A DNA stretch of 64,000 nucleotides, taken from the NCBI GenBank assembly GCA_049516255.1, contig JBEKTH010000011.1, forward strand, positions 10,348-74,347, read 5' to 3'. This DNA comes from Verrucomicrobiota bacterium. Lineage in GTDB: Bacteria; Verrucomicrobiota; Verrucomicrobiia; Limisphaerales; UBA11358. The notes under the pieces were generated by a model. That model made no database searches and was not told the DNA's origin. It saw only the letters and a program-made list of their open reading frames with translations. This document shows, one piece after another, positions 8,892-15,396 of the stretch. The position numbers were made by a program, and so were the translations under genes. Position 1 is the first letter of the stretch, and the number at the start of each line of letters is the position of its first letter.

Positions 8892-9296
<405 letters not shown>

Positions 9297-9332
9297 TCAG
9301 CGAACAACTTGAACCTCACTCGAATTAAAACC

Positions 9333-10928
9333 ATGAAACGATATTTACTGACCCTCGCTTTAATTACCACCACTGCATTCGGCGTCGCTTCACTGCGCGC
9401 GCAAACGAACACAATGGCATCCACCAACGCGCCGGTCGCGGCTTGGACGACCAATGCGCCAACGACCGAAGAGCGCCTGGAATCCGTCGAGGCGTATTTT
9501 CAGAACGGCGACCCAACCCTTCCTTACAAGGACACCAACGGCAACTGGACGGTGAATTTTGGGCTTGGTGCTTCCATCATCAACACCAACCTGATTAACA
9601 GCCAGGGCAACTATGTATCGTTCCCCGGCGCCGGTCACAACGCCTGGTTGCTGACCAGTACGGCGTTGGTGTTGTTTATGACGCTGCCCGGTCTGGCCCT
9701 GTTCTACGGCGGTCTCGTCCGCAAAAAGAACGTCCTGTCCGTGCTGGCCCAATGCTTCCTGATTACCGGTTTAACGACGATCCTGTGGATTATCTGCAGT
9801 TACGGGATGATCTTCGGCGGCGATGGCACCCCTACCGGCCCGTTGGGCATGACCCACGACTGGGTTAAAGGCATCGTCGGCAATCCCGGCGTTTGCTGGA
9901 TGTTCAAGGGCGTCACCTCGGCGCCGAATCCGGGTTACTCTTATTGGGTGTCGGAAAACGTCTATTCCATGTTTCAATTGATGTTCGCCATCATCACGCC
10001 GGCGCTGATCGTGGGTTCGATTGCAGAACGCATGAAATTCTCGGCCATCCTCGTTTTCATGACCCTGTGGATCCTGATTGTGTACAATGCGCAAGGTCAC
10101 ATGGTTTGGGGTGTCAACGGCATGATGAACGGCTGTTGGAACCCGGCCGCGACGATTAAAGGCCTGGACTTTGCCGGTGGTACGGTCGTGCACATGTCCT
10201 CCGGTTGGTCGGGTCTGGTGTTGTGCATCATCCTGGGCAAACGGCTTGGTTTCGGGAAGGAAAACTTCACCCCCCACAGCATCGTGTTGACTTACATTGG
10301 TGCTTCCATGTTGTGGGTCGGCTGGTACGGGTTCAATTCCGGCAGCGCGGTAGCGGGTGACGTGATTGCCGCCAATGCCTTCACCACCACCACGATTGCC
10401 ACGGCGATTGGTTCGTTCGTGTGGCCGATGTGGGAATGGGTTGTCAAAGGCAAGCCGAGCGTGCTTGGATTCTGCTCCGGCGCGGTGGCGGGCCTGGTGC
10501 TCATCACCCCTGCTTGCGGCTATGTACTGCCGTCAGGCGCCATCTGGATTGGCATTGCTGCCGGAACCATCCCTTGGTTCTTCTGCTACAAAGTCAAGGG
10601 TTGGCTGGGCATGGATGATGCGTTGGACGCCTGGAGCGTCCACGGCATCGGTGGTATGTGCGGTGCGATCATGACCGGCATGTTTGCCCGCCAGGCGGCC
10701 AATCCGAACCTGGCCACCAACCTGAGCAAAACCGTCACGGACCATATCTTCCAGCCGCAATTATGGGAGCAGATAAAAACCATCGGCGTATCGCTGGTGC
10801 TGTTCATTGTGGGCACGATTGTGATTGCCTACATCACCAAGATGCTGGTGGGCCTGCGGCCGACTGAGGAAGTCGAAATCGCCGGTCTCGACATCAACGA
10901 ACATGGTGAAGAGGGTTATCACTCGTAA
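9333..10928 (+). CDS. amtB: Ammonium transporter (Amt family) with long N-terminal secreted extension
   Basis: Amt signatures FAGGTVVHMSSG and AWSVHGIGGMCG. I set the start at the ATG at 9333 (MKRYLLTLAL signal-like sequence). Confidence 0.93.
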   Translation: MKRYLLTLALITTTAFGVASLRAQTNTMASTNAPVAAWTTNAPTTEERLESVEAYFQNGDPTLPYKDTNGNWTVNFGLGASIINTNLINSQGNYVSFPGAGHNAWLLTSTALVLFMTLPGLALFYGGLVRKKNVLSVLAQCFLITGLTTILWIICSYGMIFGGDGTPTGPLGMTHDWVKGIVGNPGVCWMFKGVTSAPNPGYSYWVSENVYSMFQLMFAIITPALIVGSIAERMKFSAILVFMTLWILIVYNAQGHMVWGVNGMMNGCWNPAATIKGLDFAGGTVVHMSSGWSGLVLCIILGKRLGFGKENFTPHSIVLTYIGASMLWVGWYGFNSGSAVAGDVIAANAFTTTTIATAIGSFVWPMWEWVVKGKPSVLGFCSGAVAGLVLITPACGYVLPSGAIWIGIAAGTIPWFFCYKVKGWLGMDDALDAWSVHGIGGMCGAIMTGMFARQAANPNLATNLSKTVTDHIFQPQLWEQIKTIGVSLVLFIVGTIVIAYITKMLVGLRPTEEVEIAGLDINEHGEEGYHS

Positions 10929-11049: not shown

Positions 11050-11898
11050 TTAGATCACCTGGACCACCAGGGCGGTCGTGTTGTCGCGGCCATCCTTGTT
11101 CAGTGATTCCTCCACCAGAAGATGCGCCAGATCAGGGACCATCCCGGCGGATTCATCCGGGCGCAATAATTCGACGAGATGCCGGTCGTACAATCCCTCC
11201 ACCAGTCCGTCCGAGCAAAGCAGAAAGGTGTCCCCGGCTTGATAAGCCACCGCGCCCACCTGCGGGTCCACGAACTGGTTGCCGCCGCCCAGGGCCTTTT
11301 GCAAGGCATTGCGCCGGGGATGAGTACGGGCTTCCCGCTCACTGATCTTGCCGTTCCGAAACAGCCAGCCAACATGCGTGTCATCGTGGCTGAGCTGCTG
11401 GATCCGGCTTTTCCGCGCCGGCAGATGATAAATCCGGCTATCGCCGACGTGGCTGAAATACATCCATCCCGGGGTGAACCAGCACAGGCTCAGAGTGGTT
11501 TCCATTCCTGAACATTCCTCGTAGCTGCCGCCGACGTATTGCAGCGCCCGGTGGATTTGATCAAACAATTCGAACAACACGTCCTCAAAACCGATTTCCA
11601 GGCCGGTCGCAGCTTGCTGGAACGACCGCGGCAGCAGGGTGGTGATTTTTTCGATTGCAATCTGGCTGGCGTGCTCGCCCGCCTTCGCCCCGCCCATGCC
11701 GTCGCTCACGGCAAAGGCAAAGTCCATGTCTGCCATCGAGGCCGTGCCGGTTTTTCCCAGACGATGTATTTCCTGCGCATCGAATCGCAATCCCAGAAAG
11801 GCGTCCTCGTTGTTGGGGCGGACCCTGCCGCGGTCCGTCCGTCCGGACCATTTCAGGGAGACGGGGGTGGTGATCGGGCGTATTTGATTGCGGTTCAT
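11050..11898 (-). CDS. PP2C-family Ser/Thr protein phosphatase
   Basis: 282 aa. RPNNEDAF, SDGMGG, GDSR, CSDGL and DNTT motifs in PP2C order. Confidence 0.9.
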   Translation of the reverse strand: MNRNQIRPITTPVSLKWSGRTDRGRVRPNNEDAFLGLRFDAQEIHRLGKTGTASMADMDFAFAVSDGMGGAKAGEHASQIAIEKITTLLPRSFQQAATGLEIGFEDVLFELFDQIHRALQYVGGSYEECSGMETTLSLCWFTPGWMYFSHVGDSRIYHLPARKSRIQQLSHDDTHVGWLFRNGKISEREARTHPRRNALQKALGGGNQFVDPQVGAVAYQAGDTFLLCSDGLVEGLYDRHLVELLRPDESAGMVPDLAHLLVEESLNKDGRDNTTALVVQVI

Positions 11899-12320
11899 GC
11901 CGGCGGCGTTGGCTCAAAACCCGGAAGGATGGCGGCCAGTTCAAAATCCACAATACAAAAGCGTCCGTCCGACTGGCGGTAGGTCACATTGCGAATGTCG
12001 GGATCATCATGCCGCACACCGAAGGGTTCCAGCTCGGCAAACAACTCCCGGATGCGCTCCGCGTCCAGATGTTCCACCCGGCTGCCGCAGTTGGTGGTGA
12101 CGATGCAGAGTTGCCCCGGATCGGTCTCGAGCAGCCGGGGTACGAACCCGCAGTGGCGGGCTTCGAGATGACGGAGAATCCGCACCTCGTTCGCGAACCG
12201 CGCCGGCGCGTCCGAACCATGATAAGCCTTGAGCACACGGCCGTCGAAGGCGAGATTCACGGTCGATCGCAGGGTGTCTTTGACTTGCAACATAGGGACT
12301 TCGTCATCAAGGTCCGGCAA
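11895..12320 (-). CDS. Minimal protein-kinase-like protein (141 aa, or 132 aa from the ATG at 12293)
   Basis: VLKAY (beta3 Lys), NEVRILRHL (alphaC Glu), HDDPDIRNV (HxDxxxxN catalytic loop) and IVDFELA (DFG-like). Its stop overlaps the PP2C start (ATGA). The ORF-track start is a TTG. The function is inferred. Confidence 0.5.
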   Translation of the reverse strand: MPDLDDEVPMLQVKDTLRSTVNLAFDGRVLKAYHGSDAPARFANEVRILRHLEARHCGFVPRLLETDPGQLCIVTTNCGSRVEHLDAERIRELFAELEPFGVRHDDPDIRNVTYRQSDGRFCIVDFELAAILPGFEPTPPA

Positions 12321-12611: not shown

Positions 12612-12628
12612 TGGTATTTGACCTGCTA
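12612..12628 (+). promoter_or_regulatory. Candidate sigma54 (-24/-12) promoter for glnII
   Basis: TGGTATttgacCTGCT, with GG/GC at canonical spacing. It lies about 87 nt upstream of the glnII ATG. Confidence 0.45.
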
Positions 12629-12714: not shown

Positions 12715-13755
12715 ATGGCAAAATATAAATTGGAATACCTGTGGCTCGACGGCTATGAACCCGTCGCCAACCTCCGTGGCAAAACCACCATCAAGGAATT
12801 TTCAAAGTTTCCCAAACTCGATGAGCTTCCCTGGTGGAACTTCGACGGCAGTTCGACGCGCCAGGCCGAGGGCCGCACCTCGGATTGCATGCTCAAGCCC
12901 GTGGCCGTCTATCCCGACACCACCAAAAAGAACGGCGCCATCGTCATGTGCGAGGTCTTCATGCCCGACAAAACGACCCCGCACCCGACCAACGCCCGCG
13001 CCACGATTCCCGATGACCCCGGCGCCTGGTTCGGGTTCGAGCAGGAATACTTTCTCTACAAGGACGGCGTGCCGCTCGGTTTCCCGCCCGGTGGCGGCTT
13101 TCCGCCGCCGCAGGGCGAATATTACACCGCCGTCGGCTACAAGAACGTCGGCTGCATCGCGCGCGAGATTGTGGACACGCACCTCGACCTCTGCCTCGAC
13201 GCCGGCATCAACCACGAAGGCATCAATTCCGAAGTCGCCAAGGGTCAGTGGGAATTCCAGATCTTCGGCAAAGGCTCCCGGAACGCCGCCGACCAGATGT
13301 GGGTGGCCCGCTACCTCCTCATGCGCCTCTGCGAAAAATACGGCGTGGACGTGAACTGGTATTGCAAACCGCTCGGCAAGGATGTGGACTGGAACGGTTC
13401 GGGCATGCACACGAACTTCTCCACTGAACACATGCGCGAAGTGGGCGGCAAGGAATATTTCGAGAAACTCATGGCGGCGTTCGACAAATACAAGAACGAG
13501 CACATTGCCGTTTACGGCCCGGACAATCATCTGCGCCTGACCGGGCTGCACGAGACGCAGTCCATTGACAAGTTCAATTACGGCGTGGGCAATCGTGGCG
13601 CCTCCGTCCGCCTGCCGCAAACCTTCATTCCCAGCGGCTACCGCGGTTATCTGGAAGACCGCCGTCCGAACTCCCAGGGCGACCCCTATAAAATCGCCGG
13701 TCGCATCCTCCAGACCATTGCCACGGTGCCAACCAAGAAAGCGGCGAAGAAGTAA
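12715..13755 (+). CDS. glnII: Glutamine synthetase type II (eukaryote-like)
   Basis: 346 aa. MAKYKLEYLWLDG N-terminus, FGFEQEYF, WEFQI and NGSGMHTNFS motifs of GSII. Confidence 0.9.
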   Translation: MAKYKLEYLWLDGYEPVANLRGKTTIKEFSKFPKLDELPWWNFDGSSTRQAEGRTSDCMLKPVAVYPDTTKKNGAIVMCEVFMPDKTTPHPTNARATIPDDPGAWFGFEQEYFLYKDGVPLGFPPGGGFPPPQGEYYTAVGYKNVGCIAREIVDTHLDLCLDAGINHEGINSEVAKGQWEFQIFGKGSRNAADQMWVARYLLMRLCEKYGVDVNWYCKPLGKDVDWNGSGMHTNFSTEHMREVGGKEYFEKLMAAFDKYKNEHIAVYGPDNHLRLTGLHETQSIDKFNYGVGNRGASVRLPQTFIPSGYRGYLEDRRPNSQGDPYKIAGRILQTIATVPTKKAAKK

Positions 13756-13983: not shown

Positions 13984-15396
13984 ATGGCAACTCCCAAGAG
14001 CGTAATTGAACTCGCAAAAAAGGCGGGTGCGAAGATGATGGACATCAAGTTCGTCGACACTTTCGGCACCTGGCAACATTTCAGCTGTCCCGTCAGCGAA
14101 CTGACCGAGGACATTTTCACCGAAGGCCTTGGCTTTGACGGTTCCTCCATTCGCGGCTGGAAAAGTATTGAAGCCTCCGACATGCTGGCCATGCCCGATC
14201 CCGAAACCGCGTTCATTGATCCTTTTTGTGCGGTCCCGACCTTGAGCCTTACCTGCACCATTTCCGAGACCGGCACGTTGGAACCTTACAGCCGCGACCC
14301 GCGCGGCATCGCGCAAAAGGCGGAAAAACATCTCATCTCCACCGGCCTGGCCGACCAGGCGTTCTTTGGCCCGGAAGCCGAATTTTTCATCTTCGACAAC
14401 GTCCAGTTCGACTCCAGGAGCAACGGCACGTTCTATTCCGTTGATTCCGAAGAAGCCGTTTGGAACACGGGCCGCGATGAAATACCCAACCTCGGCTACA
14501 AAATCCGCCACAAGGAAGGTTATTTCCCGGTCGCGCCCGCCGACACCCAGCAGGACATTCGCACCGAAATGTGCCTGGTGATGGAGGAACTGGGCGTCAA
14601 AATCGAACGCCAGCACCACGAAGTCGCCACCGCCGGCCAGGCGGAGATTGATTACCGCTTCAGCACACTGGTAACGGCCGCCGACTGGATGATGATTTAT
14701 AAATATGTCGTCAAAAACATCGCCCGCAAACACGGCAAGACCGCCTGTTTCATGCCCAAGCCGCTCTTTGGCGACAATGGCTCCGGCATGCACACCCATC
14801 AATCGTTGTGGAAAAAGGGCAAGCCGCTCTTCGCCGGCAAGGAATATGGTGGCTTGAGTGAAATGGCCCTCTATTATGCCGGCGGTTTGCTGAAGCACGC
14901 CAAGGCCCTGTGCGCCATCTGTAACCCGACCACGAACAGCTACAAGCGCCTCGTACCCGGTTACGAAGCGCCGGTCAACCTCGCTTACAGCGCGCGCAAC
15001 CGCAGCGCCGCCGTTCGCATCCCGACCTACAGCGAGAATCCCAAGGCCAAACGCCTCGAATATCGTCCGCCGGACCCGGCGGCGAATCCGTATCTCGCCT
15101 TCGCCGCGCTGCTCATGGCCGGGCTCGACGGCATCCAGAACAAAATAAAACCCGGCGCGCCGCTGGACAAAAACATCTACGAACTGCCGCCCGAAGAATT
15201 GAAGAAGGTTCCGAATGTGGCTGGCAGCCTCAGCGAAGCGCTGGATTGCCTGGCGAAGGACCATGCGTTCCTGCTCAAAGGCGACGTCTTCACCGAAGAC
15301 TTCATTGACATGTGGATCAGCAGCAAGCGCAAGGAACACGACGCCATCCGCCTGCGCCCGCATCCGTACGAATTCTTCCTTTACTACGACGTGTAA
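13984..15396 (+). CDS. glnA: Glutamine synthetase type I
   Basis: 470 aa. [44 protein letters not shown] and the RIP region are present. Confidence 0.95.

Follow-up and report, generated by a model that had tools for sequence, protein, structure and literature searches.

Several kinases are known that retain only part of the canonical kinase fold. The effectors NleH1/2, OspG and CtkA consist of Hanks motifs I-VII only, without the activation loop and the helices αG-αI (PMC4588518, PMC12756638), and a figure legend for NleH1 marks an αF helix (PMC4588518). The activity of OspG needs bound ubiquitin-charged E2 (E2~Ub) (PMC11078946). ArkI, a small kinase of about 170-216 amino acids (aa), lacks subdomains VIII and X and retains subdomains IX and XI together with an elongated basic α7 helix (YKR motif) for tRNA binding; a dedicated eraser, KptA, removes the mark it sets (PMC9095486). 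Here we analyze a kinase-like domain that is smaller still, termed the mini-kinase, together with the PP2C-type phosphatase encoded next to it. Both genes lie on a 64,000-nucleotide stretch of contig JBEKTH010000011.1 from a Verrucomicrobiota bacterium, referred to below as the window.

Gene, conservation and predicted fold of the mini-kinase

The maximal open reading frame (ORF) on the minus strand covers positions 11895-12320 and gives 141 aa from a TTG start, as described in an earlier note on this DNA. Most of the best homologues, however, start at an internal methionine (MLQVKD or MLKVKD) that corresponds to the ATG at 12293, and the exact 132-aa product is found on 17 contigs in public collections (MGA2684269.1). 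Because of these homologue starts and the verbatim public gene call, we place the gene at 11895-12293. Thus, the reported ORF exists, but the real protein is 132 aa long. All residue numbers given here refer to the 132-aa form; adding nine yields the 141-aa frame of the earlier note.

The motifs named in that note are all present and follow one another in kinase order: VLK22AY, NE36VRILRHL, the hinge IVTTNCG70, H95-D-D97-PDIR-N102 and IVD116-F-E118-LA. The C-terminus is reached only 14 residues past E118, confirming that the protein ends shortly after the DFG-like motif, and the conserved part already stops about 7-9 residues past E118. Across 75 sequences reaching down to 43% identity, K22, E36, H95, D97, R101, N102, D116, F117 and E118 are invariant. 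In a more diverse set of 33 sequences, K22, E36, H95 and D97 still do not vary, with conservation of 90% or more for N102 and D116-F-E. A pseudokinase, one of the options raised earlier, is unlikely as a general reading, although Asn102 and/or Asp116 are missing from a small number of divergent members.

The family is large. Homologues with E ≤ 1e-3 form 5859 clusters at the 90% identity level, of which the best 120 are 79-98% identical to the mini-kinase and mostly 127-132 aa long, longer calls carrying N-terminal extensions. At the 50% identity level 272 clusters remain at the same threshold, and no full-length kinase occurs among the best 150 of these 272 cluster representatives. At least 579 matches were obtained in 185,579 species-representative genomes; the 80 loci kept from these are nearly all from Verrucomicrobiota, and the family as a whole, with its thousands of homologues, is common to Verrucomicrobiota and Planctomycetota. 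In more remote homologues, too, the module invariably extends to about residue 125, beyond which there is either a stop, a short tail or a PP2C domain. The short length is thus conserved along with the Lys, Glu, His-Asp, Asn and Asp positions. As a rival explanation, the ORF could be what remains of a truncated full-length kinase gene or a chance ORF without coding function, for which only the short length speaks. Abundant orthologues of the same size, none of them a full-length kinase among those inspected, the conserved motif residues and the confident compact structural model described below reduce this explanation to a negligible chance.

A structure prediction by AlphaFold2 (AF2), based on an alignment of the 75 sequences, resulted in a compact model with a predicted local distance difference test (pLDDT) value of 94.5 and a predicted template modeling score (pTM) of 0.88. 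It contains the strands β1 (residues 2-6), β2 (10-14) and β3 (20-24), the helix αC (29-45), the strands β4 (54-58) and β5 (63-66) and a helix at 78-86. The short strands β6-β9 (93-95, 103-106, 111-114 and 120-122) are arranged around the catalytic loop and the DFE motif, with nothing beyond. The C-lobe is reduced to one αE-like helix and contains no activation segment, no αF and no αG-αI. The prediction therefore bears out the kinase N-lobe with catalytic and Mg loops proposed in the earlier note, including the lack of C-lobe helices apart from this single one.

Comparison of the model with the Protein Data Bank (PDB) using Foldseek gave 319 matches at E ≤ 1e-3, and the best 50 of these 319 are all kinases. 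The top match was the tRNA kinase ArkI (8yv4; E 9e-7, TM 0.68 over the query, 25% identity). Further matches include Rio2, PRPK/Bud32, the kinase domain of CurKC, CK2, CDK6, NleH1/2, OspG and WbdD, with a Foldseek probability of 1.0 for ArkI, Rio2, PRPK/Bud32, CurKC, NleH, OspG and CK2. Sequence searches of the PDB with a single protein or a shallow profile returned chance matches only. A diverse, domain-only profile (A4), in turn, found CK2α, Cdc7 and Bud32 by sequence alone at E values of 5e-5 to 3e-4. It aligns GVRH95-D-D97-PxxR-N102 ... ID116-F-E to GIMHRDVKPHN ... IDWG of CK2α, and vhK22 and NE36vrvL to the β3 Lys and the αC Glu. K22, E36, H95, D97, N102 and D116 correspond in this way to K68, E81, H154, D156, N161 and D175 of CK2α, the latter numbers being taken from alignment offsets.

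The domain thus has the features of the protein-kinase-like (PKL) fold, i.e., a five-stranded N-lobe with αC, a hinge, catalytic and Mg loops and the full catalytic residue set. It does not qualify as a canonical Hanks-type kinase with twelve subdomains, as it ends about 10 residues past subdomain VII. In our judgment, the mini-kinase is very probably a true kinase-like partner of PP2C of minimal size.

Of the curated families, only one was matched above its threshold in the profile searches. The Pfam family APH (PF01636) matches with 28.9-29.3 bits against a gathering cut-off of 23.2 over the catalytic and Mg-loop region, and 73 of the 75 members scanned show this match (E ≤ 0.01). It spans positions 144-198 of the 239 profile positions (about 55) and covers the HxDxxxxN and DxE motifs. 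The Kdo/WaaP, choline kinase and Bud32 models gave sub-threshold matches to the family, and no match to the Pfam Pkinase model was obtained in the 75 members. The mini-kinase might accordingly phosphorylate a small molecule or an RNA, in the manner of APH and choline kinases or of ArkI, with a metabolite or tRNA tied to glutamine metabolism as substrate. The weak Kdo and choline-kinase matches, the ArkI match at the top of the structural comparison and a Glu/Gln-tRNA synthetase gene adjoining one fused relative are in keeping with such a role. Its obligatory partner, however, is a protein phosphatase of the PstP/PphA/Stp1 type, and the helical substrate subdomain of APH is absent. The protein carries a net charge of -3 to -4 (family median -1.3), and this acidic to near-neutral character argues against nucleic-acid binding; the basic patch and elongated helix of ArkI are missing as well (PMC9095486). 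Taken together, we regard a small-molecule or RNA kinase as very improbable.

The PP2C partner and its fusions with the mini-kinase

In the window, the stop codon of the mini-kinase and the start codon of the PP2C gene share an ATGA overlap, which indicates translational coupling. The phosphatase matches Pfam PP2C_2 (1.5e-15) and NCBIfam Stp1/IreP (4e-49). Its sequence relatives in the PDB are PstP (3.7e-27), tPphA (1.4e-20) and also Stp1, and the PP2C part matches the structures of both PstP and tPphA with a TM of 0.89, normalized by target length. A specifically PphA-like assignment was rejected, since PstP, tPphA (29-30% identity) and Stp1 match equally well.

The pairing of both genes is nearly universal, with a same-strand PP2C gene downstream of the mini-kinase in 70 of the 71 loci that have enough downstream sequence. 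Moreover, both halves occur as fusions in proteins of about 400 aa, in which residues 1-124 form the mini-kinase and the remainder the PP2C. A search seeded with one such fusion (P0172) gave 4062 matches; nearly all of the top 120 have lengths of 391-443 aa, and the named sources among these include Lacunisphaera, Verrucomicrobiales, Pirellulaceae and Pirellulales. When the mini-kinase and the PP2C of the window are concatenated, they align end to end with the closer fusions at 50-59% identity over 413 residues. This collinearity identifies the pair in the window as one bifunctional protein that is split into two. Among 84 fusions, neither the catalytic residues of the kinase nor the metal-binding motifs of the PP2C (NED, DGMGG, DG and DN) vary, and the PP2C fold starts about 15 residues past DFE. 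An AlphaFold model of the 399-aa fusion P0311 reached a pLDDT of 93.8 and a pTM of 0.87, with a value of 81 for the linker block. Such a pTM would hardly be attained if the two domains were not positioned confidently relative to each other, and it implies a fixed packing of kinase and PP2C, the interface being deduced from the pTM. No solved structure spans both domains, as the PDB matches of the fusion cover the PP2C part only, with a query-normalized TM of at most 0.56.

Public names for the thousands of proteins of this family are inconsistent and include 'serine/threonine protein phosphatase' (NCBI), 'PPM family protein phosphatase' or, for many members, 'Bud32' (JGI) and 'hypothetical' (e.g., P0023, P0113, P0120 and P0390). 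The phosphatase name on the split proteins of 127-132 aa was probably copied from fused homologues; for this form both the phosphatase and the Bud32 labels are wrong.

Two of the options raised in the earlier note, an unusually small kinase and a subunit that needs the coupled PP2C, gain support together from the kinase-like fold, the invariant residues, the PP2C gene in nearly all loci and the thousands of fusions. The constant attachment or coupling to PP2C would also suit a different role, in which the mini-kinase is a nucleotide-sensing or ATPase regulatory subunit that switches the phosphatase while another kinase writes the phosphate. Comparable cases are Bud32 in the service of Kae1 within KEOPS and pseudokinase domains that control the enzymes to which they are attached. 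Its Bud32-like fold and weak Bud32 sequence match point in the same direction, with the Kae1-Bud32 fusion (3en9) as a precedent, and so does the lack of a substrate-binding C-lobe. Some divergent members have lost Asn102 and/or Asp116, and one of them, the fusion P0213, keeps its PP2C. Against this stands the full catalytic set, invariant in 75 sequences of two phyla and including Asp97, a residue needed for phosphotransfer and not for binding. In addition, protein kinase activity is known for NleH and OspG, minimal kinases that also comprise no more than motifs I-VII (PMC4588518, PMC11078946). We therefore consider a purely regulatory subunit unlikely, and an active protein kinase forming a writer/eraser pair with PP2C reasonably probable.

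Some relatives stand apart from this pairing. A divergent stand-alone subfamily (L091, positions 218-655; also P0140, P0150, P0178, P0190 and P0202) shows 41-52% identity, a length of 145-161 aa and a C-terminal tail of 20-35 residues resembling an amphipathic helix. The 296-aa gene 3' of the L091 member (745-1635) was considered as a cryptic PP2C and rejected, with an hhalign probability of 0.15 and no Pfam match. Judging from this locus, the mini-kinase may have partners other than PP2C. The assembly GCA_036704275.1 contains three paralogous fusions (P0319, P0358 and P0372, at loci L087, L089 and L093), only one of which adjoins a type II glutamine synthetase (GSII) gene; either these paralogues have acquired different targets, or more than one organism contributed to the assembly.

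Gene neighborhood and candidate targets

In the window, the genes are arranged in the order PII (+), AmtB (+), PP2C (-), mini-kinase (-), GlnII-like glutamine synthetase (GS) (+) and GlnA (+), and the coordinates are listed in Table 1. The GlnII-like enzyme reaches 345 bits with the GlnII equivalog model of NCBIfam, below the cut-off of 500 but with the full profile covered, and it is 76-98% identical in most related loci. It appears to represent a distinct clade of GSII from the Planctomycetes-Verrucomicrobia-Chlamydiae (PVC) group.

Synteny of the split form was assessed in the 80 Verrucomicrobiota loci, which are fairly close relatives (67-90% identity). Of the 72 loci with enough sequence, 57 have a GlnII-like gene no more than 2 kb upstream, and in 56 of them it is divergent. 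PII-AmtB genes within 5 kb downstream of the split module were found in 32 of 56 loci, a weaker linkage than that to GSII. Several of the metagenome-assembled genome records with a Verrucomicrobiota-type locus (L005, L009, L025, L026, L028, L030 and L069) are labelled Bifidobacterium, Klebsiella or Akkermansia muciniphila and were probably mis-binned or mis-labelled.

Because the split loci are so closely related, nine fused genes on longer contigs were examined as well. Six of them directly adjoin a GS gene encoding 337-343 aa (a 266-aa fragment in L086). The GS gene is co-directional with the fusion in the Pirellulaceae/Pirellulales-type loci L083, L089 and L095 and divergent in the Lacunisphaera-type loci L084, L086 and L094. 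With Pirellulales belonging to Planctomycetota and Lacunisphaera to Opitutae, GSII-adjacent fusions are present in both phyla. The association with GSII has thus been kept through fusion, change of orientation and the divergence of two phyla, which makes it the strongest functional clue. The remaining three fused genes have other neighbors, namely a Glu/Gln-tRNA synthetase (L088), a peptidase S51 (L093) and unannotated genes (L087).

The Lacunisphaera-type loci contain a GGACT (gamma-glutamylcyclotransferase-like) gene 3' of the fusion (L084, 9218-9577; L085, 1464-1823; L086, 7475-7834; L094, 5194-5565). It overlaps the end of the fusion in L084, L085 and L094, and an 81-aa gene lies in between in L086. 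The GGACT, Glu/Gln-tRNA synthetase and peptidase S51 neighbors are a further tie to glutamyl and nitrogen metabolism.

The divergent intergenic region contains a sigma-54-type element upstream of glnII. It is the single match within the window, where 0.03 would be expected, and the most conserved block of the region in an alignment of 21 loci. This motif suggests that glnII may be under NtrC/sigma-54 control; a sigma-54 promoter is known from the NtrC-dependent glnII of rhizobia. For the mini-kinase/PP2C operon itself, no promoter could be recognized. Sigma-70 and terminator scans of the region were unconvincing, and an Rfam scan detected neither a riboswitch nor any other RNA in the vicinity of the locus, its only matches being tRNAs elsewhere in the window.

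The PII protein offers a second candidate target. The two enzymes could form a genuine kinase/phosphatase pair that acts on Ser49 of PII, as a counterpart of the cyanobacterial PII-P system with PphA as its PP2C. The position of glnB-amtB just downstream of the module, in the window and in 32 of 56 loci, is consistent with this idea, and tPphA belongs to the solved structures most closely related to the phosphatase. The T-loop carries RGS49EY51 as in cyanobacterial PII, and of 42 tblastn matches to PII within related loci 37 have an identical T-loop. The loop, which continues as TVDFL after Tyr51, combines a cyanobacterial-type Ser49 with a proteobacterial-type Tyr51. However, PII is absent from the immediate neighborhood of all nine fused genes, whereas six of these adjoin GSII. 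Furthermore, glnB-amtB forms a separate convergent unit, and the PP2C is no closer to tPphA than to PstP and Stp1. Conservation of Ser49 carries no specific signal either, since the whole T-loop is invariant. PII as the substrate is therefore rather improbable, and GSII is the most likely target with PII Ser49 ranking second. Even so, we name GSII as the substrate of the module only tentatively.

Table 1 Positions of the kinase/PP2C module and neighboring features in the window.
Feature	Position	Strand	Basis
PII protein GlnB/GlnK, 112 aa, T-loop RGS49EY51, alternative candidate target	8958..9296	+	NCBIfam P-II 1.3e-50
Ammonium transporter AmtB, convergent with PP2C gene	9309..10928	+	NCBIfam amt 6.9e-119; synteny
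PP2C-type Ser/Thr protein phosphatase, 282 aa, partner half	11050..11898	-	Pfam PP2C_2, NCBIfam Stp1/IreP, PDB relatives, synteny, fusions, metal motifs
ATGA overlap, mini-kinase stop TGA / PP2C start ATG	11895..11898	-	Read from sequence
Mini-kinase coding sequence including stop, 132 aa, protein-kinase-like domain, motifs I-VII only	11895..12293	-	ORF, homologue starts, exact public match, Pfam APH, AF2, Foldseek, invariant residues, CK2α/Bud32 profile alignment
Mini-kinase D116 codon	11946-11948	-	
Mini-kinase N102 codon	11988-11990	-	
Mini-kinase D97 codon	12003-12005	-	
Mini-kinase H95 codon	12009-12011	-	
Mini-kinase E36 codon	12186-12188	-	
Mini-kinase K22 codon	12228-12230	-	
Upstream extension of maximal ORF from TTG, probably untranslated	12294..12320	-	Best homologues mostly begin MLQ/MLKVKD; public gene call of 132 aa
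Sigma-54-type -24/-12 element TGGTATTTGACCTGCT (TGGTAT-N5-CTGCT, GG-N10-GC), about 88 nt 5' of glnII	12612..12627	+	Motif match, conservation
Type II glutamine synthetase, GlnII-like, 346 aa, divergent from mini-kinase, best candidate target/partner	12715..13755	+	NCBIfam GlnII 4e-103; synteny
Type I glutamine synthetase GlnA, 470 aa, 3' of glnII	13984..15396	+	NCBIfam GlnA 8.3e-207, above cut-off

Proposed mechanism and comparison with known systems

Because the conserved neighbor is a GSII gene with a putative sigma-54-type promoter, control of nitrogen assimilation by reversible phosphorylation is the most likely job of the module. In the mechanism we propose, the mini-kinase would bind ATP and Mg via the K22-E36 pair, N102 and D116, and D97 would act as catalytic base. 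The invariant K5 and R9 of the β1-β2 hairpin, together with R101, may replace the phosphate contacts of the glycine-rich loop and of the catalytic-loop Lys. The phosphate would go from ATP to a Ser or Thr of a protein substrate. PP2C may pack on the exposed face of the reduced C-lobe and stabilize the mini-kinase as E2~Ub does OspG, and it might also supply or share a substrate-docking surface. As the eraser of the pair, PP2C would remove the phosphate written by the mini-kinase, so that both enzymes could switch nitrogen assimilation by reversible Ser/Thr phosphorylation.

Several observations weigh against this reading. The only Pfam family above its cut-off is APH, which comprises mainly small-molecule kinases. 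The β1-β2 hairpin (V-K5-D-T-L-R9-S/A) contains no glycine and thus no GxGxxG glycine-rich loop. αF is generally regarded as the organizing scaffold of kinase cores, and a domain without it may be inactive alone. In the divergent members P0209 (145 aa) and P0213 (a 401-aa fusion) R-N102 is replaced by D-Y, and in P0213 D116-F-E additionally reads N-F-E with the PP2C intact. These two, a possible pseudokinase offshoot of the family, show that the domain can persist without the full catalytic set. Finally, three of the nine fused genes and about 20% of the split loci are not beside GSII, and the GSII synteny could result from shared regulation, without GSII being a substrate of the module.

If the proposal is true, the mini-kinase, which lacks αF, would be the smallest protein-kinase-like domain in nature to have all of its catalytic residues. 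Activity of the domain would moreover make it the true minimal kinase and show that the C-lobe can be replaced by a partner domain. We know of no dedicated covalent-modification system for bacterial GSII, and a kinase/PP2C module locked to glnII in two phyla is a concrete candidate for such regulation. The module is a candidate PII kinase, too; to our knowledge, a kinase for PII Ser49 has never been identified in any organism. Combining these elements, the module might represent an unrecognized kinase class, a bare core of motifs I-VII (about 125 aa) that works by docking on its antagonist PP2C in place of the αF/C-lobe scaffold. It would then serve as a dedicated GSII switch in Planctomycetota and Verrucomicrobiota, a phosphorylation analogue of the adenylylation of type I GS by GlnE, or alternatively as a PII-Ser49 kinase. 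As a whole, this combined proposal is possible but doubtful.

The literature searched yielded no account of this family, no kinase/PP2C/GS link in PVC bacteria, no control of bacterial GSII by phosphorylation and no report of a 'smallest kinase' matching this family. The closest described kinases are NleH and OspG, whose fold is likewise limited to motifs I-VII and which match the mini-kinase in Foldseek at E values of 4e-5 to 7e-5 over about 125-139 aligned columns. The dependence of OspG on E2~Ub is analogous to the dependence on PP2C proposed for the mini-kinase. However, their crystallized kinase domains comprise 159-171 residues compared to about 125, identity is only 12-20%, and neither was among the best 60 sequence matches listed. 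The mini-kinase has nothing after the DFE strand, whereas αF is marked in NleH1. NleH and OspG are secreted virulence effectors of Proteobacteria with no link to PP2C or nitrogen; the mini-kinase is a chromosomal, housekeeping protein of free-living PVC bacteria.

ArkI resembles the mini-kinase as a small kinase with a dedicated eraser, which is KptA for ArkI and a PP2C protein phosphatase here. In contrast to ArkI, the mini-kinase lacks subdomains IX and XI as well as the basic α7, and it is acidic. The crystallized domains of NleH, OspG and ArkI span 159-173 aa. The mini-kinase is smaller still. The earlier claim that known small kinases keep their C-lobe helices is too strong, since NleH/OspG/CtkA and ArkI lack such parts.

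Bud32/PRPK and RIO are atypical small kinases with reduced C-lobes and match the mini-kinase in Foldseek at E values of about 1e-5. Their structures comprise 203-290 residues and have C-lobe helices, unlike the mini-kinase. Sequence matches to Bud32 are weak (NCBIfam E 4e-4; PDB 8unk_B at 2.8e-4 over residues 17-123), and the Bud32 equivalog TIGR03724 of NCBIfam gives 19.9 bits against a cut-off of 125. Bud32 is fused to Kae1 in some archaea (3en9), a parallel to the kinase-PP2C fusion. In the loci with genes listed, no Kae1 was found; the neighbors are PP2C, GlnII, PII and AmtB, with no KEOPS or ribosome-biogenesis context. The APH/choline-kinase family (PF01636) shares its above-threshold match with the mini-kinase, but the C-terminal helical subdomain is absent from the model. 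Enzymes of the APH family are about 250-300 aa long and possess a helical substrate-binding subdomain.

In its overall design, the module resembles bifunctional regulators such as GlnE (the adenylyltransferase/removase of type I GS), GlnD, AceK and HPr kinase/phosphorylase, in which writer and eraser are joined and linked to the enzyme they control. Their folds and chemistry are unrelated to those of the kinase/PP2C pair beside GSII, and homology was neither found nor expected. Minimal kinases restricted to motifs I-VII are thus known; new are the size of this one, its end at the Mg loop, its fusion to PP2C and the glnII context.

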